Below, piece by piece: positions 1 to 64,000 of a stretch of DNA of 64,000 nucleotides; within the stretch, counting starts at the first letter, position 1, and each line of letters begins with the position of its first letter. The position numbers and the translations under genes were made by a program. Source of the stretch: a virus; IMG/VR virus record IMGVR_UViG_3300028586_000750; one strand, written 5' to 3'. The notes beneath the pieces are model-generated. The model ran no database searches, was not told the DNA's origin, and worked only from the letters and a program-made list of their open reading frames with translations.

Positions 1-153
1 CTATCTATAATAGTACAAAGAACCGTTTTACCTAAGAATTTAAAGTAGCAATTGCTAATCAGTAGAGCCTCAGCTACACCATATGGGAAAAGACAAGACG
101 ACTACATACAGAAAAACCCCACCAGTTATTGGTGGGGGTTTTCTGTATGTTCT

Positions 154-384
154 TTACATGAACGGAGCGGCAGCGTTTGCCAGACGGTGAAGCTTCCTCA
201 GACGCGGACGAGCGATGCAGCTAGCGATGAACACCAGACCAAGAACGACAGCGGGCGTCCACGTGAGGATACCCATGATAGCCAGGATACCGGTGACAAT
301 GCCGCCCCAAAGGCCAACACGACGGGCGATGATGTCAAGACCAAGGATGAACCCGATGAGGATGAAAGTACCGCGACCAATCAT
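154..384 (-). CDS. Small membrane protein
   Basis: 76 aa with two hydrophobic segments, purine-rich RBS, hairpin downstream. Confidence 0.75.
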   Translation of the reverse strand: MIGRGTFILIGFILGLDIIARRVGLWGGIVTGILAIMGILTWTPAVVLGLVFIASCIARPRLRKLHRLANAAAPFM

Positions 385-470
385 TATGTTTCTCTTTTCT
401 AAGTTAAGGGGAACTTGCTGATGAGTTTAGTTTACACACTATGGAACCTCAACGCAACTTCAAAGTGAAA

Positions 471-824
471 TTAATTTTTGAGGCTTTTTAGTTCATACAC
501 AGGGGAGATATTACCCATCTTGACAAAATCATAGGTTTTACCAACTGCTACTTTGTCATACGTTTCTTTGTGTGTAGTTAATTTACCACAAGCTGTTTCT
601 ACACGATACGAATGACCTCTGCGTGTGTTCCAATCACGTTTATCTTCAACTTTGCAGCTAGCCACCGTTTCTTGAAAAATCGCGCGGTCCAAACTAATAC
701 CACCAATGATAAATAAAGCTATCCCTAGAATAATACTTCCAAGGATAATCCCGTATTTTTGTTCTTGCTTTTGTTCTGGGGTCAGTTCCTTCTTGTTGCT
801 TCCCTTAACGTTTTTATCTACCAT
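471..824 (-). CDS. Membrane-anchored small beta-barrel (OB-like) protein
   Basis: One TM helix followed by C-x-V-x-DK...TYD...VGKTY.F; paralogue of 842-1141. Confidence 0.75.
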   Translation of the reverse strand: MVDKNVKGSNKKELTPEQKQEQKYGIILGSIILGIALFIIGGISLDRAIFQETVASCKVEDKRDWNTRRGHSYRVETACGKLTTHKETYDKVAVGKTYDFVKMGNISPVYELKSLKN

Positions 825-841
825 ATCAATATTTTACCAGG

Positions 842-1141
842 TTAGCGAGTTTCTTCACTAATACGGGCAGTGGGGATGATTGAACCAGAAACGTCAAAGG
901 TGTAGGTTTCACCAATCACAATGTCATCGTAAGTGGAGCGAGTAGTTGAATAGTCAGCACAAGAGGTTTGTAGCTTGTAATGCCAGTTCTTATTAAAGAA
1001 ACGGGTCTTGTCCGTGACAGTGCAGTTAGTGACTGTTTCATTAACAGTGACGTGATTGTAAATGAAGACACCGAGGAACCCAAGAAGGAAAATTCCACCG
1101 AGCAGAGAAAATACGGTCTGAACTTTTTCAAACTTACTCAT
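842..1141 (-). CDS. Membrane-anchored small beta-barrel protein, paralogue of 471-824
   Basis: TM helix plus CTVTDK...TYDDIVIGETYTF. Confidence 0.75.
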   Translation of the reverse strand: MSKFEKVQTVFSLLGGIFLLGFLGVFIYNHVTVNETVTNCTVTDKTRFFNKNWHYKLQTSCADYSTTRSTYDDIVIGETYTFDVSGSIIPTARISEETR

Positions 1142-1149
1142 TGTTTTCC

Positions 1150-1500
1150 CTACTTGAAGATGTTGTAACGAGTGATGGACGCGCTAAGAATGGTGCGCTT
1201 TGCGCCTAGCGAGATAACAGCAAGAACTTCATCAAGCTCTTCCTCGTTGCGGTCACCGGGACGGCTGAAAAGGTTGTTGTGGATGACGACTTCAAGAAGT
1301 TTGGTGGCTACTGAAAGCCCCGGCTCATCAGGGTGACCCAGAACAGTCTGGCGAGCAATGGACGCCTTAATGAGGCGGTCAAGAGGCTCACCCTTGGTAC
1401 TCATGATGATATCAGTGAGCTTGTCCTTATCCGTGTCAAAAAGAGCATCCAGCATGGGCAGGGTCTTAGCGGAGATAGGGTCAATAACAAGAGCAGGCAT
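1150..1500 (-). CDS. Hypothetical protein
   Basis: ORF 1150-1581; the ATG at 1500 (MPALVIDP) is preferred because it lies downstream of a -10-like TATGAT. Confidence 0.7.
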   Translation of the reverse strand: MPALVIDPISAKTLPMLDALFDTDKDKLTDIIMSTKGEPLDRLIKASIARQTVLGHPDEPGLSVATKLLEVVIHNNLFSRPGDRNEEELDEVLAVISLGAKRTILSASITRYNIFK

Positions 1501-1605
1501 GAGAACATCTTTCTGTGGAATGAACGATTTAATCCACTCTATCATAAGGTAATGGGAAAAGACAGGGTATTCACCAAACATTTGGTGAATACCCTGTCTT
1601 CAAAA

Positions 1606-3779: not shown

Positions 3780-3995
3780 TATTTTCCTTCTGTTGTAAAC
3801 GGATAGGTACATATACCATTATACGCCCCCTAAAGGGGCATGTCAACTAGCAACTATGGGAAAAGACACTTAATTCTAGCTAGTAAAGCTTGGGTTAAGT
3901 CCAGCCAAAATATGTTTTCGTTTAGACTTGCGTTTGCTAGCGAAACCTGTTAAGTTTCCCTTGTAACCACTTCCCGCTCACAAAAGGAACAAACC

Positions 3996-5101: not shown

Positions 5102-5201
5102 TTTTTACGAGAAAGCGGCCAATCGGTTAATCCTGGTTGGCCGCTTTCTCGTGTCTATGGGAAAAGACAAGCTGAATGTTCCCTTCAATATTCAGACAGA
5201 G

Positions 5202-5231: not shown

Positions 5232-5237
5232 GTACCT

Positions 5238-6179: not shown

Positions 6180-6307
6180 GAATTAATGAGTGTGGCCCTT
6201 TACCTGATATCAGGTAAAGGGCCACACTCATTTTTATTACCTTTTCGTAATCAAAAACATCTAATTACGAAAAGGTAATAATGATTAGCTATTGGGAAAA
6301 GACATTA

Positions 6308-6784
6308 TTACTCTACTGTTACGAAATGAGCAACAAGGTTTTCATCATAGAAAACAATCTTGTGACCATCGTAGCTATTAGGGCTATCAGTGAATTCGGA
6401 ATAAGGCCAGTTAGGATAGTTATTTGTTTTCTTGCAGAATTGTAAAACCCTTGTTTTGTAAGCAATTAGCTCTTGCTGCTTTTCTTCATCGTCAAAGAAA
6501 TAACTGGCTATTTCTGGGGTTTCAATAATTTCATCACGGAACCAGGCTAAATGGCCTACTAGTTTGGAGTATCCACTACGCCTTCCACCATTGGGGTAAG
6601 TATCATCCATTTCTTTTAACGTAGCAAGCAAGCCTTCTAGTAACTCTTCATCTTGACCTTTAGAGAACGGACCTACAACTACATCCTCATATCCGTCAGC
6701 ATCGCCAAGCATTGTACTTATAGTGACTTCAAAGGTGTTGGGCTTTTTCTCAGTTGGAATTACATCACCAATAACAAATTTCAT
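6308..6784 (-). CDS. Hypothetical protein, paralogue of 1606-2088
   Basis: Shared motifs as noted above. Confidence 0.8.
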   Translation of the reverse strand: MKFVIGDVIPTEKKPNTFEVTISTMLGDADGYEDVVVGPFSKGQDEELLEGLLATLKEMDDTYPNGGRRSGYSKLVGHLAWFRDEIIETPEIASYFFDDEEKQQELIAYKTRVLQFCKKTNNYPNWPYSEFTDSPNSYDGHKIVFYDENLVAHFVTVE

Positions 6785-8093: not shown

Positions 8094-9788
8094 TTAACGT
8101 TGGGTCTTGTGAGTATTCGCGTGCTCTAAAAGCTCTGCTGCGTGAGCGCGACCAGTTTCACTGTTGCTCATACCAGATAGCATACGAGCTAATTCTTCAA
8201 GGCGGTCCTCTGTACTTAGCTGCGCAACGCTTGTTTCTGTGAATGTATCAGTGCTGCTCTTTTGTACACGCAAGTGGTTATCTGCATATGCTGCCACCTG
8301 AGGTAAGTGAGTGACAACAATTACTTGTGCTTCTGCTGCGAGGGAAGACAACCTTTTACCAATTTCAATAGCTGTAGCTCCACCAACTCCACTGTCTACC
8401 TCATCAAAAATGAACGTAGGCGTGATATCTGGGTTTGCTAGGACAACTTCTAAGGCAAGCATGATACGTGATAGTTCTCCACCGCTTGCTGCTTTATTGA
8501 TAGGACGAGCATTAGTTGCACCAGGCATTTTGAGCATGAAATTTACTTCATCTGCGCCTGTACTTGAAAAACTTCCTACGTTGATTTCAATGACTAGTTT
8601 GTTTCCAGCCATTGCTAGACCAGCGAGTTCTTTGTTCACTTCTTTGGATAGACGTGCTGCTGCTTCTGTCCTGATTTTTGTGACAATACCAGCATGTTCT
8701 TCAAGTTTTTTAGCTAGTTCAATAAATTGGCGATCTAGCTTCTCAACATTGTTTGCCTCAGGGTTGAGGTCTACTAGTTTTTCATCGCTTTTCTGCCAGT
8801 ATTCAATGACATCATCAAGGGTCACGCCATATTTTCTAACTAGGCGATTCAAATCAGCAAGACGTTCTTGGGCCTGGTTTAGACGGTAGATGCTGTCTCC
8901 ATCAATGTTGTCTAGGTAGCTGCTGAGAGCATCTTTAAGTTCTTGGGCTTCATCAAGGACAGTTTCAGCTTTGTCGGAAATCTTCTGCATTTCTGGGTCG
9001 TACTCTGCTGCACTTTGAAGAGCTTTGACTGCTACTACCAGTTGGGAAAAGACATTAGCTACTTCGTAATCTTCGGGGTCAATAGCTGCTAACGCTTCAA
9101 CTGCCGAATTTTTTAATGCATCCACGTTTGTTAGTGTTGCGATCTCTTGTTTAAGAAGATCATCTTCGTTGGGTGTTGGGTTTACTTCACTGATTTCAGC
9201 TACAGCTAAAGTCAAATCATCAAACTCTCGTTGACGAGCGGAGGCGTTAACTTTAACATCCTTGATAGTACGAGCTAGCTCTTTCCACTCTTGGTGAACT
9301 TCGCCGTATTTTTTTAATGCAGAAGTAAGCTTGTCTCCGGCATAGCGATCTAAAGCATCAAGCTGAGCAACGCTGCTTTTAAGACGAATTTGGTCTGACT
9401 GACCGTGAATGTTAACCAACCCGCCACCAATTTTTGCAAGAATGCTGGCTGGCGTAGTTTTTCCGCCTAATACTGCTCGGCTTTTGCCATCTGTGTTGAC
9501 GGTACGGTTAATGTACAACTGGTCATCTTCTACTACTGCGCCTGTTTCCAAAATGTCAGGCAATGAGTTTAATCCTGCGACGTTCCAACACCCTTCAATA
9601 GATGTGAACTCTTTACCGTGACGCACAATACTGGCGTCACTACGTTTACCTAGTAGCAACTGGACTGCGGTAAGCACCATTGTTTTACCTGCACCAGTTT
9701 CACCAGTGATAACGGTCAGCCCTTTCGTAAAAGGCAAACGGGTATGACTGATAACACCTAGGTTGTGAATTGAAATTTCTTCTAGCAT
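8094..9788 (-). CDS. recN: DNA repair protein RecN
   Basis: Walker A GETGAGKT, long coiled coil, signature ASGGELSR, Walker B/D-loop FIFDEVDSG, THLPQVAA; actinobacterial-type N-terminus MLEEISIHNLGVI. Confidence 0.95.
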   Translation of the reverse strand: MLEEISIHNLGVISHTRLPFTKGLTVITGETGAGKTMVLTAVQLLLGKRSDASIVRHGKEFTSIEGCWNVAGLNSLPDILETGAVVEDDQLYINRTVNTDGKSRAVLGGKTTPASILAKIGGGLVNIHGQSDQIRLKSSVAQLDALDRYAGDKLTSALKKYGEVHQEWKELARTIKDVKVNASARQREFDDLTLAVAEISEVNPTPNEDDLLKQEIATLTNVDALKNSAVEALAAIDPEDYEVANVFSQLVVAVKALQSAAEYDPEMQKISDKAETVLDEAQELKDALSSYLDNIDGDSIYRLNQAQERLADLNRLVRKYGVTLDDVIEYWQKSDEKLVDLNPEANNVEKLDRQFIELAKKLEEHAGIVTKIRTEAAARLSKEVNKELAGLAMAGNKLVIEINVGSFSSTGADEVNFMLKMPGATNARPINKAASGGELSRIMLALEVVLANPDITPTFIFDEVDSGVGGATAIEIGKRLSSLAAEAQVIVVTHLPQVAAYADNHLRVQKSSTDTFTETSVAQLSTEDRLEELARMLSGMSNSETGRAHAAELLEHANTHKTQR

Positions 9789-9907
9789 TTTCTTTTTCTG
9801 TCTCAGTAACTACATAAGTCTACCTTATAAATAGAAATGGGATAAGTTTTACTGTACCTCCGCGTTTTCCACGTTAACCAAAGTTTTTGATGCGTTAGAT
9901 ATAAAGC

Positions 9908-10642: not shown

Positions 10643-10782
10643 TTTACCTCATTATACAAAAAGCGACGCTTAGTACATTTACTAAGCGTCGCTTTTTGTA
10701 TAAATGCTTTGAAATCCCCGATACTCTTCTGCGTATAGCAAATAATTAGAGGCTTTACTATCTGTATAAGGAGAGAGTTACA

Positions 10783-12102
10783 ATTTTTAATTTTAAAGCA
10801 GCCACAATTGCAGGCTTAGTAGCAGCATTGAGTTTAAGTTCAGCGTTACCAGCAATAGCGGCGGTAGAGACGAGCATTAATGTCAACGGTTCAGTGTTAT
10901 CAGGAGCCACATTAAACAGTAGTGTTTTTACTGTTGATGCTTCTACCCCTGCTGATACCGAAGACGTAAGATTTTATCTAGATGGCACGTACTTGGGAAA
11001 AGACAGTAGTGCGCCTTACTCTTGGCCAGTAAATACAACAGCAGGTAATCACGAATTAAAAATTCGTGTTGATGGGAAAACTAATTCTCGCGCAGAAGCA
11101 AAGTTTGTAGTTAAAGCAGGTTCTCCTGTAACACCTACTCCACAACCTTCCACTCCACCTGTTGTAACTCCACCCCCTACAGCGCCAACCCCAGTACCTG
11201 AACCTTCACAACCTGCACCTGGTAGCGCAGTTGTAAGCGTGTCCACAGCAGCGCAATTAGACACAGCCCTAAAAAATGCTACACCAGGGTCAACTATTTC
11301 ACTTGCAGATGGTAAATATGTAGGGAAGTTCATTGCTCCAAAAGATGGAACAAAAGACCAGCCTATTAATTTAGTGGGTTCTAGCAAAGCTGTTCTAACT
11401 ACAGATAGCCTTTCAAAAGGTTACGGCTTAAACATCACTGGTGATTACTGGAATGTCAAAGGAATTAGTGTAACAAAATCAGGTAAAGGTATTATGCTTG
11501 ACGGTTCTGTGGGTTCTGTAGTGGATAACGTTGACGTTGGAAACATTGGAGACGAAGGTGTTCATTTCCGCAAAAACAGTAGTGATGGAATAATCATGAA
11601 CTCAAAAATTCATGACACAGGTCTTGACTCACCTTCTTACGGTGAAGGCGTTTACATTGGAAGCGCAAAAAGTAACTGGGCTTCAATCATGGGTTCTTCT
11701 ACAACACCTGACAGAAGCGACCGCGTTGTAGTTAAAAACAACCAAATTTTTAACACAACCACAGAAGGTGTTGATGTTAAAGAAGGAACTGTTGATGGAA
11801 CAGTAACTGGTAACGTATTCACTAACTCTGGCTTCTCTGGTGCAAATTACGGCGACTCATGGGTTGACGTTAAAGGCAACAACTACACTATTTCTAATAA
11901 CAGTGGAAATGGAACTCTGTTGGATGCTTTCCAAGTTCACCAAGCTTTAGCTGGATGGGGAAACAACAACAAGTTCAGTAATAACAGCGCCACTGGTATT
12001 AAAGGTTACTTAGTCAGTGTACAAAAAGGCGTAACTGGCACTGTTGTATCTTGTCAAGACACGACAGCTAAATTGGGTCTGTCTAACGTTTCATGCTCAT
12101 AA
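10783..12102 (+). CDS. Secreted right-handed beta-helix (pectin lyase-like) protein with N-terminal Ig-like domain and Pro/Thr linker
   Basis: Signal peptide if started at ATT 10783; V.FYLDG....D..APY Ig-like motif; PTP linker; GDEGVHFR...IHDTG...GEGVYIG...EGVDVKEGT beta-helix repeats. Confidence 0.8.
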   Translation: MFNFKAATIAGLVAALSLSSALPAIAAVETSINVNGSVLSGATLNSSVFTVDASTPADTEDVRFYLDGTYLGKDSSAPYSWPVNTTAGNHELKIRVDGKTNSRAEAKFVVKAGSPVTPTPQPSTPPVVTPPPTAPTPVPEPSQPAPGSAVVSVSTAAQLDTALKNATPGSTISLADGKYVGKFIAPKDGTKDQPINLVGSSKAVLTTDSLSKGYGLNITGDYWNVKGISVTKSGKGIMLDGSVGSVVDNVDVGNIGDEGVHFRKNSSDGIIMNSKIHDTGLDSPSYGEGVYIGSAKSNWASIMGSSTTPDRSDRVVVKNNQIFNTTTEGVDVKEGTVDGTVTGNVFTNSGFSGANYGDSWVDVKGNNYTISNNSGNGTLLDAFQVHQALAGWGNNNKFSNNSATGIKGYLVSVQKGVTGTVVSCQDTTAKLGLSNVSCS

Positions 12103-12143
12103 TCAAACAATCCAATCTACGTAAAATTAATTGAAATGTTTGG

Positions 12144-12172
12144 TTGCAAAGCTGTTTAATCTATGCTATAGT
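12144..12172 (+). promoter_or_regulatory. SigA-type promoter driving an ORF-free transcript
   Basis: TTGCAA-17-TATAGT with extended -10 TG. Confidence 0.7.
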
Positions 12173-12178: not shown

Positions 12179-12362
12179 GTGTTCAGGAACGGGCCTGGGA
12201 GCTTATCGTAACAGACAGCAAATCCGAGGGCACGGCAGAGATAGCCGTAACACAAATCATTCTGGTGGATTTGACAGTTTAGCAATTGGAACTGTGACCT
12301 ATTTATTGAAGGGGTTCAGCACTGGTAATTCAGTGTTGGACCCCTTTAGTAATTCCCTGACT
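12179..12362 (+). ncRNA. Candidate structured ncRNA (about 185 nt)
   Basis: Own promoter, no RBS-led ORF, at least four hairpins with G-U pairs, 5'/3' closing stem, downstream terminator. Confidence 0.5.
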
Positions 12363-12424
12363 TAAAGCAATGGGAAAAGACAAGCGCCTCACCAGTTAAT
12401 TCTGGTGAGGCGCTTGTCTTTGTG

Positions 12425-13559: not shown

Positions 13560-13689
13560 AAAAGACATAAAGCAAAAGCCCCAGTAAATTATACTGGGGC
13601 TTTTGCTTTATGTTAAGCTATTGGGAAAAGACACCTTGCTTTTATTGCTTAAAAATGTTATGCTTAAAGTTCGTAAATAGGAGATTTAT

Positions 13690-14689: not shown

Positions 14690-14809
14690 TAAAAGCTTTG
14701 GCTGTACGTAAACAACTACGTACAGCCAAAGCTTTTGGGAAAAGACATATAAAAATAGGGTGTTCTACCGAAAGTTGGTAGAACACCCTATTTGTTTAAA
14801 GCTTGGAGC

Positions 14810-15450: not shown

Positions 15451-15669
15451 AATAATGCCCTCGCCCTTGCTTTCACCGAAAAGATTGCTCTTAATCAGGC
15501 GGACATTTTCTCAGCTATTTACGCACCGTGGGGTAAAAGCTTATTACCGCGTAAGCAAAAGCAACTGCATGGGAAAAGACATATTTTTCTCATGCAGTTG
15601 CTTTTTTGTTCAATCATCGTTACGATAGGTAACACCGCAACATTCCCCCTTCAAACAAAGGCAAAACTC

Positions 15670-17035: not shown

Positions 17036-17179
17036 ACACTAAAACTTTGGGAGCACAGATACGATTATCTGTGCTCCCAAAGTTTTCTCTATATCAACAA
17101 GGTAATGGGAAAAGACACCTTAGTTATTGATTTGATTGAGGTTTCAGACATCAAGTTCTACAACCGTGAAAATAGGTTG

Positions 17180-18072: not shown

Positions 18073-18600
18073 ATGACTACTTCAACTGCTACTCAGACAC
18101 TCCGTAACAGCGATGCTGTGAACATTGCTGCTGGCCTGGTGAACGCTTTCATGGGAAATGAGGATGGAGCGTATGCATCATTCCCCGTGGACACGGTTAA
18201 GATTGCTAACGCTTACGGGGTAGAGGTTACAACGGTTACCTTCCCTGACAAGGCTACCGTTTCTGTGCTGGTCAAGGACAATGCAGACACCAACCCTAAA
18301 ATGATGTTTGCTAAGCGTCTGAGGAACCGTAAGGAAATCCGTTACATGACTGCTCTCAACTTGGGTCATGCGATTGAGAACCAGGACAAGGACAGGTACG
18401 GTTTCTACTCCACCAAGTTCGGTCTGTCTGGTGTGGAGCGTAGTGGTTTCGCTGCTACTTTCGCAACAAACCTTCTCATGCCTGCTGACGTAATGCGTAT
18501 CATGTACGCATCTGGTGCTAGCATCCGCAAGATTGCACGCACTTTCGGTGTGAGTAAGACGCAGGTGTTCATTCGCCTTGCTCAGCTTGGCCTTGCATAG
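18073..18600 (+). CDS. ImmA/IrrE (Peptidase_M78)-like protein with degenerate active site and C-terminal HTH
   Basis: PVD..KIA...GV.V...; R..TALNLGH in place of RFTIAHELGH; E....FA..LLMP; IARTFGVS..V..RL..LGL. Confidence 0.75.
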   Translation: MTTSTATQTLRNSDAVNIAAGLVNAFMGNEDGAYASFPVDTVKIANAYGVEVTTVTFPDKATVSVLVKDNADTNPKMMFAKRLRNRKEIRYMTALNLGHAIENQDKDRYGFYSTKFGLSGVERSGFAATFATNLLMPADVMRIMYASGASIRKIARTFGVSKTQVFIRLAQLGLA

Positions 18601-18794
18601 GCGCTGGGAAAAGACACTGAGTAACCCCCTTGGCTAGATAATCTAGTCAAGGGGGTTACTTCTGTTACAGGGAAAACCAAAAAAGTTTTAAACTCAGCTT
18701 GCATCCACCAAAACCTTCTGATAGAGTTTACTTATACGCACAAACCGTGCACAACACTTTCGCCCTACTTTTAATAGGATAAGGAATTAGAACC

Positions 18795-20989: not shown

Positions 20990-21469
20990 ATGTCTAAGTC
21001 AACTGAGCCAGCTATTTTCGTTGATGTTCATTCATCTGGTGTGACTGATATTCTCGCTAAGTCTCCTCTTTTTGAGAAGACTGCAACTGTGACGGCTGTT
21101 CAGATTACTGAAGCAGAGCATGTTGTTACTGCTTTCGGTGATTTTATTGAGACTGAGCGTGATGCTGTTGCTGGTCAGTGGAAGGTTACTAACCCTGACG
21201 GTGAGCAGTACATTCTTGATGATGAGGTTTTCAAGGCTCGCTATAAGGCTTTGGGAAAAGACAAGTACCAGGCTATTGGCTTCATTCGTGCTACTAGTAA
21301 CCCTTGGGGTGTTCCCATTGAGATTACTGCACCTTGGGGTGAACCTCAGTTCGGTGATGAGGATTGCATCGTAGCTGTTTCTGTCCTTAATGGTGAACCT
21401 GTGTGGACTGACCGTTATATTATTGAGCGTAAGGCTTTTGAGAATACTTACGCTTCCGTTACTGCTTAA
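20990..21469 (+). CDS. PGDYG-like phage protein
   Basis: A.AGQW.VTNPDGEQY......F...Y and APWGEPQ. Confidence 0.7.
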   Translation: MSKSTEPAIFVDVHSSGVTDILAKSPLFEKTATVTAVQITEAEHVVTAFGDFIETERDAVAGQWKVTNPDGEQYILDDEVFKARYKALGKDKYQAIGFIRATSNPWGVPIEITAPWGEPQFGDEDCIVAVSVLNGEPVWTDRYIIERKAFENTYASVTA

Positions 21470-21812: not shown

Positions 21813-21907
21813 TTGTCAAAAGGTAAGCGCCCCGTAACGCAAAGTTATGGGGCGCTTACCTTTTGACACAAATGATGTTTTAGTTTAGAGAATGTTATAA
21901 TTACGGT

Positions 21908-22600: not shown

Positions 22601-22857
22601 TTAGCTAAAAAGTGTGTGGCCCGTTTTCTTCCTAGGAAACGGGCCACACCTATATGGGAAAAGACATGCACCATAACTGCGTTAACCAAAAGCTACGCAT
22701 ATATTACTTTTGTTTAGAGCGGGTTAGCTATACAAACGAGCACAAATGATAATAAAAATGAGCGTTCTTTACTTTAGCGAATATTTTGATACCAACTTCC
22801 CGATGCTTACAAGTAAGCAAGTCGCTAGAAGTTCTTTTAAGTTCACAGGAATGAACC

Positions 22858-24006: not shown

Positions 24007-24132
24007 CCTTTAAAAACTGCGGTGGCAACTTATTACAAGTTACCACCGCAGTTTTCATTTCTATCTAGTCTTTATTGCTGATGAGAAGGCTAGTTAAGGA
24101 TGGGAAAAGACATGTTATGGTAAGCTTAAGAT

Positions 24133-24495
24133 ATGCATACTATTATTGATCGCAAGAGCTTAACTCAGGAAGAGTATACTGAGTTCTTCCAAGAGACAAT
24201 CCTTGAACCAGAAGGTAAGGCTGTTAGCCCTACACAAATTAAGAAGACAAAACATAAACTTCGTAAGTTTTTAGAGCGTGTTACTTTGGAGCACATCTAT
24301 GAAACAACTGGTACTGATTTACGCACAGAGGAAGCTCAATGGGCAATCAGAGTTGCTGTTCATTTTGATTTTGATGTTTCACCAGAAGGCGATGTTGTTG
24401 TTAGGGTGAAAACAGATAACGGTTGCCACCAAAACAATAGGAACAGACTTTATAACGACACTTATCGTATTAGCAAGCAAGAACTTTTGAAATAA
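24133..24495 (+). CDS. Hypothetical protein
   Basis: 120 aa ORF. Confidence 0.7.
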   Translation: MHTIIDRKSLTQEEYTEFFQETILEPEGKAVSPTQIKKTKHKLRKFLERVTLEHIYETTGTDLRTEEAQWAIRVAVHFDFDVSPEGDVVVRVKTDNGCHQNNRNRLYNDTYRISKQELLK

Positions 24496-25708: not shown

Positions 25709-25872
25709 TACAAAGCAAATATCCCCACCAGAACTAACTGGTGGGGATATTTGCTTTTAGGCTATGGGAAAAGACAACATGTAACGTCTGAGTTCTGAAG
25801 TTCCTTAAGATCCTCAAGATCGCTTTAATATAGAAAAGCGATTAGTTTGGTGTTTGTTAAAAACTTTGGCAG

Positions 25873-27227: not shown

Positions 27228-27310
27228 ACAAAATAGGTAAGGCCCCACCAGAATTAACTGGTGGGGCCTTGCCTATTTTAGGACTACATGGTAATGGGAA
27301 AAGACAAGCT

Positions 27311-28507: not shown

Positions 28508-28642
28508 TATTTCCTTAATAAAGTTGTATTATAACCTTACCAGAAAACACTTAGAATATCAATCTTTATATGAGTTAAGGACGATGGGAAAAGACAAAGG
28601 TGAGTTGCAGTTCAGTTCAACTGCAACTCACCTTTGTAGCTG

Positions 28643-29670: not shown

Positions 29671-29748
29671 TCTTAAATAAGTATCGCCTCTCACCTAAAA
29701 CTAGGTGAGAGGCGATACTTATTTGTAGGCTATGGGAAAAGACGGATG

Positions 29749-30850: not shown

Positions 30851-30960
30851 TTGAAGAAACCCTCTCTAGATATTCAGAGAGGGTTTCTTTTTGAGTGATT
30901 ATATGATAGGCTCAATGGGTAAAGACATTATTAATTGCAACTTATTGATTGGAAAAAATC

Positions 30961-31398: not shown

Positions 31399-31514
31399 CC
31401 ACTAGTTACAAAAACACCCTCTTTTTCGGAAGAGGGTGTTTCTTTTTAGGTACAGGTGTGATAGGCTAAATGGGTAAAGACATTTACTGACAAAAACTTA
31501 TTGATTGGAAAATC

Positions 31515-31928: not shown

Positions 31929-31987
31929 AGCTTAACCAATGAGTAGTGCCCCACCAGAATTAACTGGTGGGGCACTACTCATTGGTA

Positions 31988-37867: not shown

Positions 37868-38032
37868 AATGCTACCTCGTTTCTTTGTTAGTTTTTATTA
37901 TATGTTTCAACTATACACCTTGGTGTAGTTTTGTCAACAAGCAAGGGTATGGGAAAAGACAATATATTAGATAGTGATATATGATTGGTATGCTAGACGC
38001 AAGTCTCAACATACCGTCACATTAGGCCCTAA

Positions 38033-39368: not shown

Positions 39369-39465
39369 TAAATCTCCTGTTTTATGGAATATATACTTTC
39401 ATAGTATATCAATCTTTTCCCAAGTTAGCAAGACCTAACTTGGGAAAAGACATTACTCGCAGCTA

Positions 39466-43120: not shown

Positions 43121-43238
43121 AAGTTAATTATACGATAGAACGCGGTTGCTTCCATTAATTAAAGCACTTGGGAAAAGACATTGCTTTTCAAGGAATATAA
43201 TGATAAGATAGCCAGTAGACTACTTTATAAGGAATGCA

Positions 43239-44078
43239 ATGACTACAGTATTTATGTACCCAAACGACATGTTTGCGAAAAGCCAGGTTGACGATGAATT
43301 CGTTAACGACCTTGCTGCTGCCGTTGCACTTTCTTTCCCCACTGTTTTCCTAGATGCTGAATCGCTTGAAGATGACCGAATTAAAATTCGTGGCGTTATT
43401 CCAGAAGGAAGCACTGTTATCTATCGCGGGTGGATGCTTTCACCCGAGCGTTATCAGCGTCTTAGTAATGCTGTAGAAAAGACAGGTTCAGTTCTATTCA
43501 CCACACCTGAGCAGTATTCTAAAGCTCATTTCATGTCAGGTTGGATTGATGCTCTAGGTGACTTGACCTTCAAAACCAAGCTTTATCCTGCTCCCGTTGA
43601 CATTGACGCAATTGTTGCATCTGCACCCGATTGGTCCAGTTTCTTTGTCAAGGATTATGTAAAGTCCGTTTACGGCTTTACAGGGGAAGTTGTTAAAGAT
43701 GACCTTGCTAGTTTCTTGGAAGGTTTTATGGAAGAGCATAGCTACTGGCTTGCTGGTGGTATTGCTCTTCGTGAGTTCGTAAATATCCCTGAGGATGCTG
43801 TAGAGCTTCGCGGTTGGTGGGTTAATGGGAACTGGCACTTCACACCACATCCTAAGTTCGCAAATGTAGGAAGCCTTCCTGTCGTTGATGAAGAGCTTCT
43901 TAATAACATTAATGACAAGCTAAAAACTTTGGGTGTTGCGTTTGTTAGCGCTGATTTCATTGAGATTTCTGCTGGTTCTTGGACTGTTATCGAAATTGGT
44001 GACGGACAAGTTTCAGGACTACCCCACTATGAGGATGCATCAAGAAATGACGCTGTAAATATTTATAGACTATTTTAA
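43239..44078 (+). CDS. ATP-grasp domain protein (R2K/DUF4343-like)
   Basis: YRGWML...Y..L; FFVKDYVKS; REFV; E.R.WW.NG; F.S.DF.....W..IE.GDGQVSG. Confidence 0.85.
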   Translation: MTTVFMYPNDMFAKSQVDDEFVNDLAAAVALSFPTVFLDAESLEDDRIKIRGVIPEGSTVIYRGWMLSPERYQRLSNAVEKTGSVLFTTPEQYSKAHFMSGWIDALGDLTFKTKLYPAPVDIDAIVASAPDWSSFFVKDYVKSVYGFTGEVVKDDLASFLEGFMEEHSYWLAGGIALREFVNIPEDAVELRGWWVNGNWHFTPHPKFANVGSLPVVDEELLNNINDKLKTLGVAFVSADFIEISAGSWTVIEIGDGQVSGLPHYEDASRNDAVNIYRLF

Positions 44079-44896: not shown

Positions 44897-45027
44897 CTAG
44901 TAACTAGGTAAGGCCCCAAGTCATTTAAGGCTTGGGGCCTTACCTTTACCCTTTGGGAAAAGACAGTGCATATAAACAAGTGTGGCCCCTTACTAATCAG
45001 GTAAGGGGCCACACTTGGAAGGTCTAA

Positions 45028-45114
45028 CTAGATACCAAGCTCATTCATGAGAGCAATCGTCTCAGCGTCGAACTCGTCGGTCATGATGAACTCATCGTCA
45101 GTGTAAGTAGCCAT
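45028..45114 (-). CDS. Acidic micropeptide (28 aa)
   Basis: AGAAGGA RBS; MATYTDDEFIMTDEFDAETIALMNELGI; hairpin downstream. Confidence 0.6.
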   Translation of the reverse strand: MATYTDDEFIMTDEFDAETIALMNELGI

Positions 45115-45308
45115 TGTAATAGGTTTCCTTCTGTAAGTTAGTGGGTGTCTTGCTTTCTGGTTACAGCTTACATCCTTATTTTGAAGCTTGTCAACTTGAA
45201 ACGGAACTTTTTTAGAAAAAGATTTCCGGGTTTTAAGTTGCATCCAGCCATTGAGAGTGATAGAGTTCTTACATACAGCAACACCACCTAAAAACTTTGG
45301 AGAAATAA

Positions 45309-46912: not shown

Positions 46913-46975
46913 CCCTTTGGGAAAAGACAAGTAAGGCCCCACCAGATGACTGGTGGGGCCTTACTTTATTGTGTG

Positions 46976-48804: not shown

Positions 48805-48882
48805 TAGGCTATGGGAAAAGACACTTAAACTAGGAAAGCTCCTCACCTGATGGTGGGGAGCTTTTTTGGATGAGGCGGGGTA

Positions 48883-50285: not shown

Positions 50286-50900
50286 ATGTCCGCTCAAATG
50301 TACGGTTTTGTTCTTCTTCCCGATCAAACCAATTTACGCAAAATGGTTGAGATAAATAACTCTGTGTTCCCTGCGTCCCCGTTACAATTGGACAAGGAAT
50401 ACACTTTGCCTCATTGCACTGTATTACAAGCCCCTATTCGTAATACCTTTGACTACCAATCTTCCTTAGAGAAATTTGTTGGTTTTTCCGGCTTCAAACA
50501 TGAACCTCGTACTGAAATTGGTACTATGTATCAAGATGGGTATGCTGTTCTTATTGACGTGGATAATGCTCGCTGGTTATCTGACTTTAATGCTTACATG
50601 GTCAGGGAAGTATCAGAATTCATTGATGTTCCGCCTGTGGGAAAAGACACTGTTTTTGAGAACTCTGACCAAGAATTAAGCTACTCTTTAACAGGATACA
50701 AACGTAACCTTGCTGCCTACTCTCCCCATTTCACTATTGCAGTTAACGAGGGAAAAGATAAAGCTAGTTTTGACCCATCTGCTAACACAGCATTAGGAGC
50801 GACAGTACGTTTCCGTAAGTTGGCTTTCTGTAAGCATGGGCAATACGGGAAAGTAGCTCAGGTTATAAGCTCTGTGGATTTACCTTTTCAATGGGATTGA
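50286..50900 (+). CDS. 2H phosphoesterase
   Basis: Two HxT motifs (PHCTV, PHFTI) about 105 aa apart. Confidence 0.75.
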   Translation: MSAQMYGFVLLPDQTNLRKMVEINNSVFPASPLQLDKEYTLPHCTVLQAPIRNTFDYQSSLEKFVGFSGFKHEPRTEIGTMYQDGYAVLIDVDNARWLSDFNAYMVREVSEFIDVPPVGKDTVFENSDQELSYSLTGYKRNLAAYSPHFTIAVNEGKDKASFDPSANTALGATVRFRKLAFCKHGQYGKVAQVISSVDLPFQWD

Positions 50901-51684: not shown

Positions 51685-52668
51685 ATGGTCCATACTGCGC
51701 ACAAACTGAATAAGCTATTCCTTGTAGGGTTAGCTGTTCTTGCTGTTGTTGCTTTAACTCGCATATTCTTTGATGCCCAATTCCAGCTTGGTAGTTCACT
51801 TCAAAACTTATTGAGCTTATCCATAGCTGTTATTATTGAGTCCACGCCATTTGTTATTCTTGGTATTGTTCTTTCCGGATTGTTGCAAAAGTTTGTGTCT
51901 TATGACCATGTTGCTCGCTATCTTCCGAAGAATGCTTTCCTCCGAAGAGCACTACTTTCATTAATGGGAGTGTTCATTCCAGTCTGCGAATGTGGAAATG
52001 TTCCTTTAGCCCGTGGATTGATACTTAAAGGGTTTACTGTTCCAGAAGCAATGACATTTTTGCTAGCCGCACCAATCCTTAACCCCTTGACCATTATCAC
52101 TACATACCAAGCTTTTGGTTGGGATAACGGCATTCTTGTCGGACGTATCATTGGTGGATTTGTGATTGCCAACTTGATTGCTTGGTATTTCAGCACTCAC
52201 GCTAATCCTCATGGGTTACTTACCGAAAAGTTTGAAGCTGCATGCAATCACAGTCATGGCATGGGAAAAGACATAAAGTTTTTCAATACGTTTCTTTCCG
52301 AAGTAAGCGTTATTATGCCCACTTTAATTTTAGGTAGTTTCATCGCTGGTGGCATACATGCTTTCGTTCCACAAGAGTTCTTAACACAAGTTGCGTCCAA
52401 CCCAGTTTCTGCTGTGTTAGTGATGATTGTTATGGCTTTCGTTATTGCAATCTGTTCAAACGTTGATGCTTTCTTTGCTCTTTCGTTTGCATCTATTTTC
52501 CCTTCTTACGCAATCCTAGTGTTCCTTCTTGTAGGTCCACTTGTTGATATCAAAATGTTGGCACTATTAAGGACAACATTCAAAACCTCCACTGTTGCTA
52601 CAATAGCTGTTCTTGTAGTGATATTAAGTGTAACAATCAGCTTAGGGGTAAGCACTTTCTATGCTTAA
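51685..52668 (+). CDS. DUF318 (YcgR/ArsP-type) permease
   Basis: ES.PF...G..LS; PVCECGNVPL; FLLAAP.LNP; ICSNVDAF; GP.VDIK. Confidence 0.9.
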   Translation: MVHTAHKLNKLFLVGLAVLAVVALTRIFFDAQFQLGSSLQNLLSLSIAVIIESTPFVILGIVLSGLLQKFVSYDHVARYLPKNAFLRRALLSLMGVFIPVCECGNVPLARGLILKGFTVPEAMTFLLAAPILNPLTIITTYQAFGWDNGILVGRIIGGFVIANLIAWYFSTHANPHGLLTEKFEAACNHSHGMGKDIKFFNTFLSEVSVIMPTLILGSFIAGGIHAFVPQEFLTQVASNPVSAVLVMIVMAFVIAICSNVDAFFALSFASIFPSYAILVFLLVGPLVDIKMLALLRTTFKTSTVATIAVLVVILSVTISLGVSTFYA

Positions 52669-53383
52669 ACAACTTTCTAACCATCGCGGGCTGTTCATCA
52701 TCATGACAGTTTGCTTAGTCACATTGTGGCTTTACTTCGCGGATAAACTTGTGCTGTTCATTCATCCTCGTTATTTCCTTTTCACAGCTATATTTGCTGC
52801 GGCAGGATTGGCATTCAGCATTATTGCTTTGTGCATAAATCGCACACACGATGATCATGAAGAAGATCCTTTAGATCATGAACATCAAAATGACAGCAAA
52901 ATTAAAAACTTTGCCTATTTGGGTATTACAGCAGTAATTATCCTTGTATTTGCTTTGTTTACTCCTTCGAGCTTATCAACGCAGAATGTTAACTTAGCCC
53001 GTGTAAACAACTTCACCTTTGGGGTGAATGACAATGTAGATGTAAGCAACATAGAAAAACTGACTGTCAAAAACTGGTCAACTATTTTGAGCGGCAACTT
53101 GGCATTCAATAATGAGGAAGCTGTAAGTCTTACTGGCTTTGTTGTTCCTATAGATAAAGACAACTTCTTCTTAACACGCTATGTACTTTCATGTTGCGCT
53201 ATTGATGCCCAACCTGTAGCTGTTCCTATTTATGCTCCGAACTGGGAGGCTTCTAACACAGAAGGTGACTGGGTTTCTGTAGAAGGGTCTTTTGAAGAAG
53301 CAACCGTTGATGGATATAGCAACTCTTTGGTACCTTCAACATTAAAAATTATCGATGAACCGGATGAACCTTATGACTATTAA
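52661..53383 (+). CDS. TIGR03943 / DUF1980 (YcgQ-like) permease subunit
   Basis: LFIHPRY; His-rich loop; RYVLSCCAIDAQP; DWVSVEG; PDEPY.Y. Confidence 0.9.
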   Translation: MLKQLSNHRGLFIIMTVCLVTLWLYFADKLVLFIHPRYFLFTAIFAAAGLAFSIIALCINRTHDDHEEDPLDHEHQNDSKIKNFAYLGITAVIILVFALFTPSSLSTQNVNLARVNNFTFGVNDNVDVSNIEKLTVKNWSTILSGNLAFNNEEAVSLTGFVVPIDKDNFFLTRYVLSCCAIDAQPVAVPIYAPNWEASNTEGDWVSVEGSFEEATVDGYSNSLVPSTLKIIDEPDEPYDY

Positions 53384-54443
53384 AGCAAGACGTTTCCTCT
53401 TAGGCGGGATACTCGTATTATGTTTAGCTCTCATAGGAGTATTCATCGCTGTTAACTCACATAAAGCTGACAAAGAAGTAGAGAACGCTTTCCAAAGCAT
53501 GTCAGGTTTTGTTCTTACAGACCAAGGTATTGAGAAGGTTGAACAGAATAGTGACACACTAGAAACAGCAATGGTCTTGGAAAAAGACAATATTGCTTCC
53601 TTTGATGTGGTTGATAACAAAACTTTGGTGTACGAAGTATACGCAAACAAAGAAGATACTTCTAAGTCCAACATTTTTACTTACAACCTTGACACAAAAA
53701 AGTCTGACAATGTTTTTGCAAGCACAGAAACAAACTATTTTTCGAGTCTGCATAGTTTAGACAATGGCCGTTTTGGTGTTCTAGAGACTGATGATATTAA
53801 CAATGTACGTCGTTTGATGATTTTCAATGTATCTACAGGAGTTACTGAAAATTTTGGTTCACCTACCAAAGAGAACTTCATTATTGACTGGATACCATCC
53901 CCTGATGGAAAACATGCTGCTTTCAAAGGTGTGAACGATGATGCTTACGTGTTCAATATTGAAGATGGTACTTCCACATTGATTGGTACCTTCAATAACC
54001 AGTTTGGCTTTCTAGACAACAACACAATTTGGGTGACAAACATTGAAGACGATAAGAAAATGTCGGTGTTTAATATTGCTAGCAAACAGTCTAAAGAAGT
54101 AAAATTCGCAGATGGATTAGTGAACAAAACCTTCTTAAATGGAGCTTTACTTACTAGTTCGCCTACGGAGAAAGTCATTTGGACTACTAGTGGATTTTAC
54201 AACTCAGATACGGCAAGCCAACTGGTTATTGCCACAGATGGAACTGAATATTCTACCATCTACGATTTGACGTACAACGGTTACAAGTTTTTGAGTGTTA
54301 CGCCCTCGTTTGATGCAACAAAACAAATCATGTCTATTGCTTCAACAGATAATTATGAAAACAACGTAATACTTGTTATCGACACTACAACTGGTCAACT
54401 GCTTACTACCTTGTTCGGTAAACAGTTCATCTATACAAGCTAA
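53373..54443 (+). CDS. Membrane-anchored TolB-like beta-propeller protein
   Basis: N-terminal TM; WIPSPDGK propeller repeat; coupled to the permease pair. Confidence 0.7.
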   Translation: MTIKARRFLLGGILVLCLALIGVFIAVNSHKADKEVENAFQSMSGFVLTDQGIEKVEQNSDTLETAMVLEKDNIASFDVVDNKTLVYEVYANKEDTSKSNIFTYNLDTKKSDNVFASTETNYFSSLHSLDNGRFGVLETDDINNVRRLMIFNVSTGVTENFGSPTKENFIIDWIPSPDGKHAAFKGVNDDAYVFNIEDGTSTLIGTFNNQFGFLDNNTIWVTNIEDDKKMSVFNIASKQSKEVKFADGLVNKTFLNGALLTSSPTEKVIWTTSGFYNSDTASQLVIATDGTEYSTIYDLTYNGYKFLSVTPSFDATKQIMSIASTDNYENNVILVIDTTTGQLLTTLFGKQFIYTS

Positions 54444-56217: not shown

Positions 56218-56298
56218 ATAGACATATAGGTAACGCCCCGCCAGAATTAACTGGCGGGGCGTTACCTATATGTCTTGGGAAAAGACAAGCTACTCTGT

Positions 56299-57666: not shown

Positions 57667-57747
57667 CCGATGGGAAAAGACAGCTTCTTAGTGTAGAGAT
57701 AGGCTGTCTTTTCTGATATACTGAAAGTATATTAGAAAGGTTTTATT

Positions 57748-59640: not shown

Positions 59641-59758
59641 ATTATTCACGCTTTCTTTATATAGATTATTTTCCATCTTATCATATCAATAGTTACAATA
59701 TAAGGCTGTGGGAAAAGACACACTTTACTTATTCAGAATAATTTGATATGATAAGAGT

Positions 59759-61218: not shown

Positions 61219-61288
61219 CGGTCATGTGAAAAGACAATGAGTGAGGCCCCACCAGTTAATTCTGGTGGGGCCTCACTCATTATTATTA

Positions 61289-61675: not shown

Positions 61676-62242
61676 ATGAATGCACAACCAAAAACTGATG
61701 TAATCAAAGTAATTTACAATGAAGGTGAAGAAAAGCCTTGGGCTTTAGATTATGAAGACGTGAGCGCAATCAAAACTGCTCGTGCTGCATTAAACTATCC
61801 TGCTCAGAAGTTCGAAACAGAAGAAAAAGCTGTTGAAGTAGCTGAAATGCTTCGTGATATTATTAAAGCTGATGCTGTAGTAATTCCAAGTGAAGACGAA
61901 GTGCTAGATGATGTAGAAAAAGCTAAGTTCTTCCAGCCTATTAGTTCAGAAGATAAAACAGATGAACTACATGACGGTGGACATAGAGATAACCACGACC
62001 ATGATGACACGAAACGTGAAGATGTAGATTTCTACGCTACTGATGAAGTAGATGAAGACTTAATCCGCGAGTCACAACAAGAAGCTGATATTAAAAATTT
62101 AGATAGTGATGAAATTACTACTAACCCTGGCGAGTCTCAAAGACAAGCTGAAAGGGAAATGGGAATAGACACCCCTTACACCGAGGCTGACAAAGCCCAA
62201 GGGCGTACTAGACCAGTAATTACACCACCGCCAACGATTTAA
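61676..62242 (+). CDS. Highly acidic hypothetical protein
   Basis: AAGGAGG RBS; D/E-rich. Confidence 0.8.
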   Translation: MNAQPKTDVIKVIYNEGEEKPWALDYEDVSAIKTARAALNYPAQKFETEEKAVEVAEMLRDIIKADAVVIPSEDEVLDDVEKAKFFQPISSEDKTDELHDGGHRDNHDHDDTKREDVDFYATDEVDEDLIRESQQEADIKNLDSDEITTNPGESQRQAEREMGIDTPYTEADKAQGRTRPVITPPPTI

Positions 62243-62352
62243 CCAAATAGGCCAGACACTGATTAGTGTCTGGCCTATTTTTATGTTGATTTTCTGTCAA
62301 AGAAATGCTAGACTAACATTATCTATCTATTGTTAAGCAGAGAGCACAAATT

Positions 62353-62865
62353 TTGAAGAAGAGACTTATCCCAACCATAGCCATTGCTATCGCTGCAATC
62401 GCTGTACTTGCTGGTTGTAGTGGACCAGGCGAAAGCAATGCTACTACTCTTGAACCGCGAGACTCTGTTGTCTACGTAGAATACAGTGACGGCATTAAAG
62501 CCAACTGCGCCGCTTATGATTTAATGCGCTGTACTTGGCGTAAAACAGATGGCTTTGATTATGCCAAAGCAGTAAAAATGGTTAACGTTGACCCCGGCGA
62601 AAGAGCATCCTCAGAAGAAACAGAAGCTTACGATAAAGTAAAAAAGGATGACCCTGACAGTCTTATCAGCGTTAAAGTATCATCAACAAGCAGCGTGGAT
62701 TCTTTCTACCCTTCTAAAACTGTTAATCCTGATAACAGCATTTCTTATTGCGTAAGCTACGGTGGTTCATATGCATCTTGCACCCATGTATTCTCCGATG
62801 ATGAAGTAACCATTCTACCAAGCGACAACGACGATAAGGATAGCACGGAACCAAACTCATGGTAA
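62353..62865 (+). CDS. Lipoprotein, paralogue of 62859-63374
   Basis: Lipobox LAGC; DGI.ANC......RCTW.K. Confidence 0.8.
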   Translation: MKKRLIPTIAIAIAAIAVLAGCSGPGESNATTLEPRDSVVYVEYSDGIKANCAAYDLMRCTWRKTDGFDYAKAVKMVNVDPGERASSEETEAYDKVKKDDPDSLISVKVSSTSSVDSFYPSKTVNPDNSISYCVSYGGSYASCTHVFSDDEVTILPSDNDDKDSTEPNSW

Positions 62866-63374
62866 AAAAGTTTGTTATCTTTGCCCTCATTGGTATTCTC
62901 GGTTTCTTCCTCGCTGCTTGTTCCTCCGCAGAAGATGAACAATATGGAGAACAGACATTTGATAGTCCAGAAGAGCAAGCTGAATATGAAGCAGAAATGG
63001 AAGAATGGGACAACGTTTATGTTGGTTCGGTAAATTTCAATGACGGCATTAACGCTAACTGCAACTCATATGAAGCTAACTTCCGTTGCACTTGGACAAA
63101 AGAGGACAACTACACTTACGAAAATGCGATGATTGACTTTGTTCCCGACAAAGCTTTCCCACAGACCGTAAGAAAAGACATTGGAAAGTCCTCTTTCACT
63201 TACCCTGATGAAGAGGAAGATTACATCAAGTACAAAAAGGTTCTTCTTGAAGACAACACAATCACGTACTGTGCTTACCGTAACTTCTATCCCGAACGTT
63301 TTGATTGTGTAGTAATTTACCCTTCTGGTGACGATGTTGAAGTTGTAAAGAAAGAAGAAAATCACAATTGGTAA
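62859..63374 (+). CDS. Lipoprotein, paralogue of 62353-62865
   Basis: Lipobox LAAC; same Cys-pair motifs. Confidence 0.8.
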   Translation: MVKKFVIFALIGILGFFLAACSSAEDEQYGEQTFDSPEEQAEYEAEMEEWDNVYVGSVNFNDGINANCNSYEANFRCTWTKEDNYTYENAMIDFVPDKAFPQTVRKDIGKSSFTYPDEEEDYIKYKKVLLEDNTITYCAYRNFYPERFDCVVIYPSGDDVEVVKKEENHNW

Positions 63375-63467
63375 TTAAGTAAGTTAACTTATTTACAATG
63401 ACACTTAATCATGCTATGGTGAAGTGTTTAAGCAAAACATTACTAACCCTATTAAGGACAAAATATT

Positions 63468-63653
63468 ATGTTGACTATGACTTCTATGTTTGACGAAAAC
63501 GGCAAGGCGAAGTTCAAGGAAGCTGCTGCTGCATTCCGCAGTGTGATGGGGAAGCCTGGTGACGTGATTAACAGGGCTGTTCTTGTTAAGCCTAAAGCTG
63601 CTGTTCTCGCTTTGGCTCGCACTCGCCCTATCGTTTATAACGAGTGGGACTAA
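63468..63653 (+). CDS. Small hypothetical protein
   Basis: AAGGA RBS; 61 aa. Confidence 0.7.
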   Translation: MLTMTSMFDENGKAKFKEAAAAFRSVMGKPGDVINRAVLVKPKAAVLALARTRPIVYNEWD

Positions 63654-63765
63654 CCTAAAAGGGAGAGAAAGTCGGTTAACTTTCTCTCCCTTTTAGGTTG
63701 TAATAACCAAGCGTTTCCCCTATACTTGAGGTAACTTAAAACAACCCACCACAAGAAAGAAACTC

Positions 63766-63945
63766 ATGCGTATTCAGACTGTCCTCATCGTTGCTCTGTT
63801 CGTTGTCATCGTTTTCAACCATGATGGTATTAGTGAGGCAATCACAATGCTTCTTAACGTGGGTCTGGTATTCCTTATTGGTATGGGCGTCCGAGCGATT
63901 GTAAACAAGGTTCGCGGTAAGGGTAAGCCTGCCGCACGTAAGTAG
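63766..63945 (+). CDS. Small two-TM membrane protein (59 aa)
   Basis: MRIQTVLIVALF... to TAG 63945. Confidence 0.7.
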   Translation: MRIQTVLIVALFVVIVFNHDGISEAITMLLNVGLVFLIGMGVRAIVNKVRGKGKPAARK

Positions 63946-64000
63946 GCAATGGGAAAAGACAAGGTGTGTCAAAAGAATTTCAACTTTCTTTTGACACACC

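Follow-up and report, generated by a model that had tools for sequence, protein, structure and literature searches.

A DNA word confined to one strand and evenly spaced along a putative giant phage-like element: candidate programmed nick sites

The 64,000-nucleotide stretch of viral DNA analysed here (IMG/VR record IMGVR_UViG_3300028586_000750; hereafter the window, always meaning the whole stretch) carries a short word that is real, selected and read on one DNA strand. We tentatively interpret its copies as programmed nick sites, cut by an enzyme that the element itself would encode, and we give this interpretation somewhat less than even chances. The 11-mer TGGGAAAAGAC occurs in 32 exact copies between positions 84 and 63960, and all 32 are on the + strand. 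Number, strand and positions agree with a first-pass annotation made from the sequence. Dinucleotide shuffles of the window contained 0.03 copies on average and at most one. As the annotation had also noted, the next base is A in all but one of the 32 copies, which gives the 12-mer TGGGAAAAGACA; the copy at 29733 has G. The preceding base is usually A or T (28 of the 31 copies scored: A 17, T 11, G 2, C 1), as annotated, whereas the claim that GGCTA often stands upstream was generous, with only three exact occurrences. The upstream flank follows the weak consensus wAGSCTW, and nothing is conserved beyond it. Six further copies differ from the 12-mer at one position and are all on the + strand; they occupy the largest gaps between exact copies, including an 8.2-kb gap that holds those at 30916, 31471 and 34415. 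No copy with zero or one mismatch was found on the − strand of the window, and once the main word was masked the window contained no further polar word. Independent ENA and Logan assemblies are 100% identical across the stretch they share with the window and related strains retain the sites, so the word is not an assembly artefact. The sites in the window are as follows.

84-95, + strand: exact copy; intergenic, hairpin 117-137 begins 21 nt further on
1553-1564, + strand: exact copy; over the 5' end of − gene 1150-1581, GACA of the word fused into hairpin 1559-1600
3857-3868, + strand: exact copy; divergent (−+) intergenic, a consensus promoter pointing left has its -35 box 11 nt away
5158-5169, + strand: exact copy; ++ intergenic, hairpin 5106-5153 ends 4 nt earlier
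6293-6304, + strand: exact copy; convergent (+−) intergenic, stop of − gene 6308-6784 3 nt away
9043-9054, + strand: exact copy; within the RecN-like gene (− strand), in a variable stretch, encoding N-V-F-S-Q
10994-11005, + strand: exact copy; within a + beta-helix/Big_7 gene that strain L220 lacks
12371-12382, + strand: exact copy; convergent intergenic, hairpins 12303-12352 and 12376-12421 on either side
13622-13633, + strand: exact copy; ++ intergenic, hairpin 13564-13614 ends 7 nt earlier
14736-14747, + strand: exact copy; convergent intergenic, hairpins 14690-14737 and 14753-14793 on either side
15570-15581, + strand: exact copy; inside hairpin 15557-15605
17106-17117, + strand: exact copy; ++ intergenic, hairpin 17041-17086 ends 19 nt earlier
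18605-18616, + strand: exact copy; stop of + gene 18073-18600 4 nt earlier, hairpin 18619-18661 2 nt on
21252-21263, + strand: exact copy; within + gene 20990-21469 (PGDYG), reads L-G-K-D
22655-22666, + strand: exact copy; ++ intergenic, hairpin 22614-22649 ends 5 nt earlier
24101-24112, + strand: exact copy; ++ intergenic, gene 24133-24495 starts 20 nt on
25765-25776, + strand: exact copy; convergent intergenic, hairpin 25712-25757 ends 7 nt earlier
27295-27306, + strand: exact copy; convergent intergenic, hairpin 27230-27279 15 nt earlier, stop of a − gene 4 nt away
28585-28596, + strand: exact copy; −− intergenic, fused with hairpin 28594-28637
29733-29744, + strand: exact 11-mer with G as twelfth base; convergent intergenic, hairpin 29674-29725 ends 7 nt earlier
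30916-30927, + strand: one-mismatch copy TGGGTAAAGACA; ++ intergenic, in the 8.2-kb gap of exact copies
31471-31482, + strand: one-mismatch copy TGGGTAAAGACA; ++ intergenic
34415-34426, + strand: one-mismatch copy TGGAAAAAGACA; within + gene 34148-34537
37950-37961, + strand: exact copy; −− intergenic
39441-39452, + strand: exact copy; −− intergenic, over the 3' arm of hairpin 39413-39450
43169-43180, + strand: exact copy; divergent (−+) intergenic
44954-44965, + strand: exact copy; convergent intergenic, hairpins 44906-44945 and 44977-45017 on either side
46918-46929, + strand: exact copy; stop of a + gene 5 nt earlier, fused with hairpin 46929-46966
48812-48823, + strand: exact copy; stop of a + gene 7 nt earlier, hairpin 48830-48869 6 nt on
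50638-50649, + strand: exact copy; within + gene 50286-50900, reads V-G-K-D
52262-52273, + strand: exact copy; within the gene of the host-derived ArsP-type permease, at an indel-rich loop
53578-53589, + strand: one-mismatch copy TGGAAAAAGACA; within + gene 53364-54443
56276-56287, + strand: exact copy; convergent intergenic, hairpin 56220-56275 immediately before
57671-57682, + strand: exact copy; ++ intergenic, partly paired with a partial inverted copy at 57705
59709-59720, + strand: exact copy; divergent (−+) intergenic
61225-61236, + strand: one-mismatch copy TGTGAAAAGACA; convergent intergenic, fused with hairpin 61236-61281
62160-62171, + strand: one-mismatch copy TGGGAATAGACA; within + gene 61676-62242
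63950-63961, + strand: exact copy; stop of a + gene 4 nt earlier, hairpin 63963-64000 1 nt on

The orientation of the word follows the DNA strand and not transcription. By our own gene calls, which match those of the corresponding ENA contig over the shared 20 kb, the window contains 124 genes, 71 on the + and 53 on the − strand. Most exact copies are intergenic (26 of 32), and the other six lie within genes, four of them in + and two in − genes. The intergenic copies are found between convergent genes (10), between two + genes (8), between divergent genes (3), between two − genes (3) and at the window edges (2). As copies thus occur in all four intergenic classes and in genes of both orientations, the word is tied to the strand; not one copy lies on the − strand, despite 43% of the genes being there. 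The first-pass annotation had inferred a signal at the DNA level from this polarity, and it had named − strand copies and an orientation tracking local transcription as signs to the contrary; we found neither, and this core of its inference holds. Its remarks on the surroundings of the word were borne out as well. Long hairpins, some 62 in the window with stems mostly of 13-25 bp, mark the gene boundaries, and 23 of the 29 intergenic copies (exact and variant) lie within about 30 nt of such a hairpin or inside it: 11 just 5' of a hairpin, 13 just 3' of one (three lie between two hairpins and are counted in both) and two within. No -35/-10 signal stands at a constant distance from the copies in the window. 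At 39411-39452 and 57671-57716 a partial inverted copy (two mismatches, − strand) lies nearby and forms a hairpin with the word itself.

We next turned to the element that carries the array. The gene for a RecN-like protein of the window (8094-9788, − strand) also lies on an ENA metagenome contig of 791,061 bp (ERZ27250822, k141_903752), which matches the window at 100% identity where the two overlap. This contig has both its ends at about window position 31967, within tandem pilin genes, and the window therefore derives from a different assembly, that of a probably circular or permuted genome. We followed this contig for 94.1 kb without a break (-10,888 to +83,211 in window coordinates), and here 50 copies with at most one mismatch are all on the + strand and none on the −, so that the word does not switch strand anywhere in the 94 kb. 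Twelve of the one-mismatch 12-mers lie in this range (13 including the copy at 29733), all on the + strand, and to the right of 64 kb such variants outnumber exact copies.

The copies are spaced far more evenly than expected. In the window, the gaps between exact and one-mismatch copies have a mean of 1726 bp and a coefficient of variation (CV) of 0.40, whereas random or random-intergenic placement gave a CV of 0.91-0.96 (P < 5e-5). The closest pair of exact copies is 834 bp apart. Over the 94 kb the mean gap is 1853 bp and the CV 0.43, against 0.97 for random placement and a lowest value of 0.55 among 20,000 simulations, and every full 10-kb bin holds 4-7 copies.

To the left of the window the array is shared with a second word, GACGGACRTTTT, which is likewise found on the + strand only and does not occur in the window itself. 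On the ENA contig (L309) it lies at about -7227 and -110, and a strain that is 97.5% identical (L311) has it also at about -18016, -16780 and -12467. In this strain the two widest main-word gaps are each split by GACGGACRTTTT (3693 bp into 1836 and 1857 bp, 3962 bp into 2315 and 1647 bp; P = 0.005), which further left carries the array on in 1.2-kb steps. A more distant relative (L117, 79% RecN identity) combines two copies of GACGGACRTTTT (reverse strand, 2927 and 5078) with four of the main word in a regular array on a single strand, with gaps of 2151, 2713, 3177, 3108 and 2108 bp.

Comparison with relatives shows that the word is under purifying selection. In a strain with 92% nucleotide identity (L220), all seven shared sites are intact, and all 84 of their 84 motif bases are unchanged, while the 60-nt flanks are 90% identical; at the identity of the flanks, the chance of this outcome is 0.9^84, or about 1e-4. 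Two of the copies within genes, those in RecN and ArsP, were compared with homologues, and both lie in variable protein loops: no more distant RecN protein has the N-V-F-S-Q stretch unchanged (one mismatch there in the 79% relative), and the ArsP copy lies in an indel-rich loop of a host-derived permease. The check for conservation that the annotation had proposed found the word, on the same strand relative to RecN, in L311, in L117 and in a relative with 63% RecN identity (L119), sparser in the latter two. Around RecN, 21 kb of sequence from relatives with about 50% RecN identity contain no copy. Homologues of the relatives' genes (T2SSE, DUF4379) led to no protein of the window's own genome but to further positions in relatives, and two 21-kb regions elsewhere in lineages that bear the motif lack the word, with at most one copy at one mismatch. 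Scans of viral and metagenome collections with 14- and 17-mers returned single chance matches only, and a RecN-based scan of viral contigs found nothing.

We refer to a giant phage-like element, rather than to a tailed phage with packaged linear DNA, because its gene content is phage-like, no virion gene was seen and some relatives carry pilus- and conjugation-like genes. RecN relatives are found on many contigs of 0.4-0.8 Mb. The genes are small, mostly lack a recorded Pfam family (7 of 34 have one in L001) and each have their own hairpin. Among the window genes, Pfam and PHROGs identified accessory genes only, with no candidate for a protein that reads the word. With the word masked, the + strand has more G than C and more T than A irrespective of gene direction, so it is the compositional leading strand; its GC skew has a replication-like component of +0.022 when all positions are counted and of +0.048 at third codon positions.

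An actinobacterial host is probable, and sequence comparisons make the family Microbacteriaceae likely. A gene pair at 51685-53383 encodes an ArsP_1 permease and a DUF1980 protein, and the permease relatives hint at the host: the closest bacterial ones (50-54% identity) are all from Microbacteriaceae or unclassified actinomycetotal metagenome-assembled genomes. The first named match of RecN is from Rhodoluna. The element has a GC content of 36-46%, and Microbacteriaceae are typically of high GC. Each of 401 Microbacteriaceae genomes contained no copy or one copy of the word, without enrichment, so the word does not belong to the likely host chromosome; near matches had no strand bias in five genomes of this family. 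The word is probably not read by a host enzyme.

That phage DNA can carry programmed nicks has been known since the 1960s, from T5. In T5/BF23 and phiKMV-like phages the nicks lie on one strand at sequence-defined places, with a function that is still unknown (PMC3517423). In phage tf, 14 nicks at TACTRTGMC have been mapped by experiment; every one is in the top strand although the genes of tf are transcribed convergently, and single-mismatch variants of the motif share its strand (PMC3517423). In Rembedalsseter, 13 nanopore coverage drops at WACTRTGAC share a single strand, and the word is enriched in 60 relatives (PMC11780129). Sites of the tf type have been described as unevenly distributed (PMC3517423) and as not evenly spread but concentrated to one side (PMC11780129). 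In the tf record we found TACTRTGMC 14 times on one strand and never on the other. Its first ten sites, a subset chosen post hoc, lie 721-2575 bp apart (mean 1511 bp, CV 0.37, P = 0.003), after which the sites thin out. The same motif is confined to one strand in SCYZ1 (14:0), phiPA01_302 (8:0) and Pa222 (9:0), where the gaps are locally regular.

Among the functions listed in the first-pass annotation, nick sites appear to be the best fit, because the tf-type motif obeys the same one-strand rule and has locally regular spacing. As in tf, LUZ24-like phages and Rembedalsseter, the word is short, nearly exact and found on one strand only, whatever the direction of the genes, and its variants keep to the same strand. 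Its sites lie both between and inside genes and the word is conserved across related genomes, as is the case for tf-type motifs, whose local spacing of 0.6-2.5 kb (for the first ten sites of tf, the mean and CV given above) is close to that of the window. Confinement to one strand is also shared with T5/BF23 and phiKMV-like sites. Those phages differ in having only a few major sites each, and the loose T5 consensus is present on the un-nicked strand too. The nicks of tf and Rembedalsseter were shown by experiment, whereas those of the window are putative.

Other properties set the array apart from these systems, and several of them count against nicking. The word is unrelated to that of tf and longer (12 + 7 bp versus 9 bp). 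At least 50 sites in 94 kb, compared with 8-14 per 45-kb genome, would be an unprecedented load of nicks on a single strand, and their density is flat, whereas tf-like sites thin along the genome. Each known nick motif is one word with its point variants; in the array, two unrelated words are interleaved, on a genome of about 0.79 Mb and uncertain nature. No virion, terminase or nickase gene was found in about 170 kb sampled from the element and its relatives. Relatives of 0.6-0.73 Mb carry pilus- or conjugation-like genes, namely T2SSE/CpaF-like ATPases, T2SSF, TcpE and AAA_10 (L222 1-8172 and 12388-14550; L303 57-929). The window has ten pilin genes, with no such machinery near them.

If the copies are nick sites, a sequence-specific enzyme of the element's own would recognise (wAGSCTW)TGGGAAAAGACA and work on one strand. 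This enzyme would most likely be a nickase that leaves single-strand interruptions in the + strand of the packaged genome, as in T5, phiKMV and tf/LUZ24-like phages, and GACGGACRTTTT would serve the same array in the adjoining stretch. Selection would maintain one site per about 1.2-2.7 kb and avoid spacings below about 0.6-0.8 kb, placing the word in tolerant parts of long genes where intergenic space is lacking. Confinement to one strand would keep opposed nicks from turning into double-strand breaks. We infer the cutting itself, the identity of the enzyme and the purpose of the nicks, which might be torsional relief or the handling of very long DNA at packaging or entry. A 0.79-Mb element with one site per 1.8 kb on one strand would then be by far the most extreme case. 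The even spacing, which tf and its relatives also have, speaks for a role that is length-dependent, mechanical or processive and not for a few special sites. Comparing the gene content of lineages with the word (this genome and the 79% and 63% RecN relatives) and without it (the L221 and L222 lineages) could lead to the enzyme.

If the sites are not nicked, the array would be a new kind of polar genome punctuation. One such possibility, unlikely in our view though worth serious thought, is an undescribed 'metering' of giant mobile genomes, in which element-encoded machinery uses two unrelated words on one strand to mark units of about 1.8 kb over at least 94 kb and perhaps far beyond. Entry of the genome in steps, its packaging or discontinuous synthesis on a transferred strand would be examples of the polar process that these units serve.

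A somewhat more doubtful alternative is that the copies are non-cleaving binding sites for a polar machine of the element: a translocase guided as by FtsK-orienting polar sequences (KOPS) or SpoIIIE recognition sequences (SRS), an entry or packaging motor, or roadblocks. The orientation would give direction, and the even spacing would keep a site always within reach. The strict polarity across 94 kb whatever the genes is in keeping with this, as are the purine-rich core GGGAAAAG, which resembles KOPS and SRS, and the position on the compositional leading strand, as with KOPS. However, known translocase words are degenerate 8-mers and about ten times sparser, whereas the word is 12-19 bp long and nearly exact, and its absence from the two distant 21-kb samples of relatives fits a genome-wide guide poorly. 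The genomes of the likely host also lack it, which disfavours the KOPS or Chi word of the host that the annotation had considered.

It is rather unlikely that the word marks starts of discontinuous synthesis, as a primase or single-strand-initiation signal on the lagging-strand template or, should the element be conjugative, on the single strand that is transferred. The strand rich in G and T irrespective of genes is the lagging-strand template, spacings of 1.2-2.7 kb match the length of Okazaki fragments, and the pilus- and conjugation-like genes of relatives would agree with transfer. Moreover, the word often adjoins hairpins that would remain free of single-strand-binding protein. However, priming is needed genome-wide, while motif-bearing relatives have two 21-kb regions without copies and the 50% relatives have none around RecN; known primases, furthermore, read 3-5 nt and not an exact 12-mer.

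A role in transcription, as a promoter for a phage RNA polymerase, part of a terminator or a 'stoperator' for a repressor like that of mycobacteriophage L5, is very unlikely. The copies are mostly intergenic and adjoin terminator hairpins. Where a hairpin lies within about 6 nt 3' of the word, a − gene ends there in seven of the eight assessable cases, so that the complement TGTCTTTTCCCA provides the U-tract of that terminator, which looks like a secondary use of the word. Stoperators of L5 and cluster A phages are also asymmetric (12-13 bp), occur about once per 1.7 kb, mainly in short intergenic spaces, and are actinobacterial, as the host of the element probably is. However, stoperators are oriented with transcription, whereas the word is fixed to a strand along which genes alternate. 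Its orientation never tracks the local genes, 14 intergenic copies face the 3' ends of − genes (several with a hairpin following at once), and the copies within genes of either orientation do not fit such a role. We rejected a promoter for want of a -35/-10 signal at fixed distance and because half of the copies face − gene ends or hairpins. A mini-ORF (open reading frame) or leader peptide (NTG GGA AAA GAC) was rejected as well, as the frames vary in length between 5 and at least 135 codons and share no residues beyond G-K-D. The word matched no Rfam family.

Still less probably, the word acts as Chi does and tames a helicase-nuclease, whether that of the host (RecBCD, AddAB or AdnAB) or an element-encoded one, that arrives from a DNA end of fixed polarity. 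Chi, KOPS and SRS are likewise tied to the strand and to the compositional leading strand, and dense, even sites would protect any stretch. However, these words are 5-8 nt long (as all known Chi sites are), degenerate, sparser, never completely polar and host chromosomal, and the 401 Microbacteriaceae genomes have at most one copy each, with near matches free of strand bias in the five examined.

We regard it as scarcely credible that a mobile or cassette-shuffling system (integron attC-like or PeSL-like) uses the copies for crossover or left them behind. By sequence comparison, the region is a hyperplastic cassette region, an array of small self-contained gene units that are shuffled among relatives, and all sites are direct repeats. 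In L117 the same genes are shuffled, with homologues of window genes from 45 kb and 63 kb beside RecN. Relative to the window, L220 has an extra 607-bp unit beside RecN (9852-9893) and lacks a 1.5-kb beta-helix/Big_7 gene (10671-12155). However, none of these indel ends is at the word, which lends no support to a recombination hotspot, one of the annotation's suggestions, at cassette borders. The shared part is only 12-19 bp with unrelated flanks, and the homologue of gene 45028-45243 in a relative has the word on the opposite (5') side. Avoidance of type III restriction, as with the one-orientation sites of T7 and EcoP15I, was rejected: the word is enriched about 1000-fold (32 versus 0.03 copies), and avoidance cannot create enrichment.

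Several other features of the element were observed. The element, or else the relative at 79%, has genes for an R2K ATP-grasp protein, a GGACT protein and a 1358-aa Amidoligase_2 protein (window 43239-44078; about 64.1 kb, L310 11203-11628; L303 5869-9945 and 11958-12413). Phage tf has the same kind of set (amidoligase, ATP-grasp and AIG2-like) in its nick-dense early region. Genes related to NAD and ADP-ribose (SIR2, NADAR, an Arr-type ADP-ribosyltransferase and ART toxin-like genes) are scattered through the region and its relatives (window 34843-35559; L310 5558-6046 and 14503-14895; L304 4462-5586). Finally, nearly every gene boundary has a very long perfect hairpin, with stems of up to 29 bp, beyond what an intrinsic terminator needs (e.g., 6185-6232, 10652-10703, 21814-21868 and 56220-56275), and compensatory stem changes between strains are found in these hairpins, such as the one upstream of 5158.

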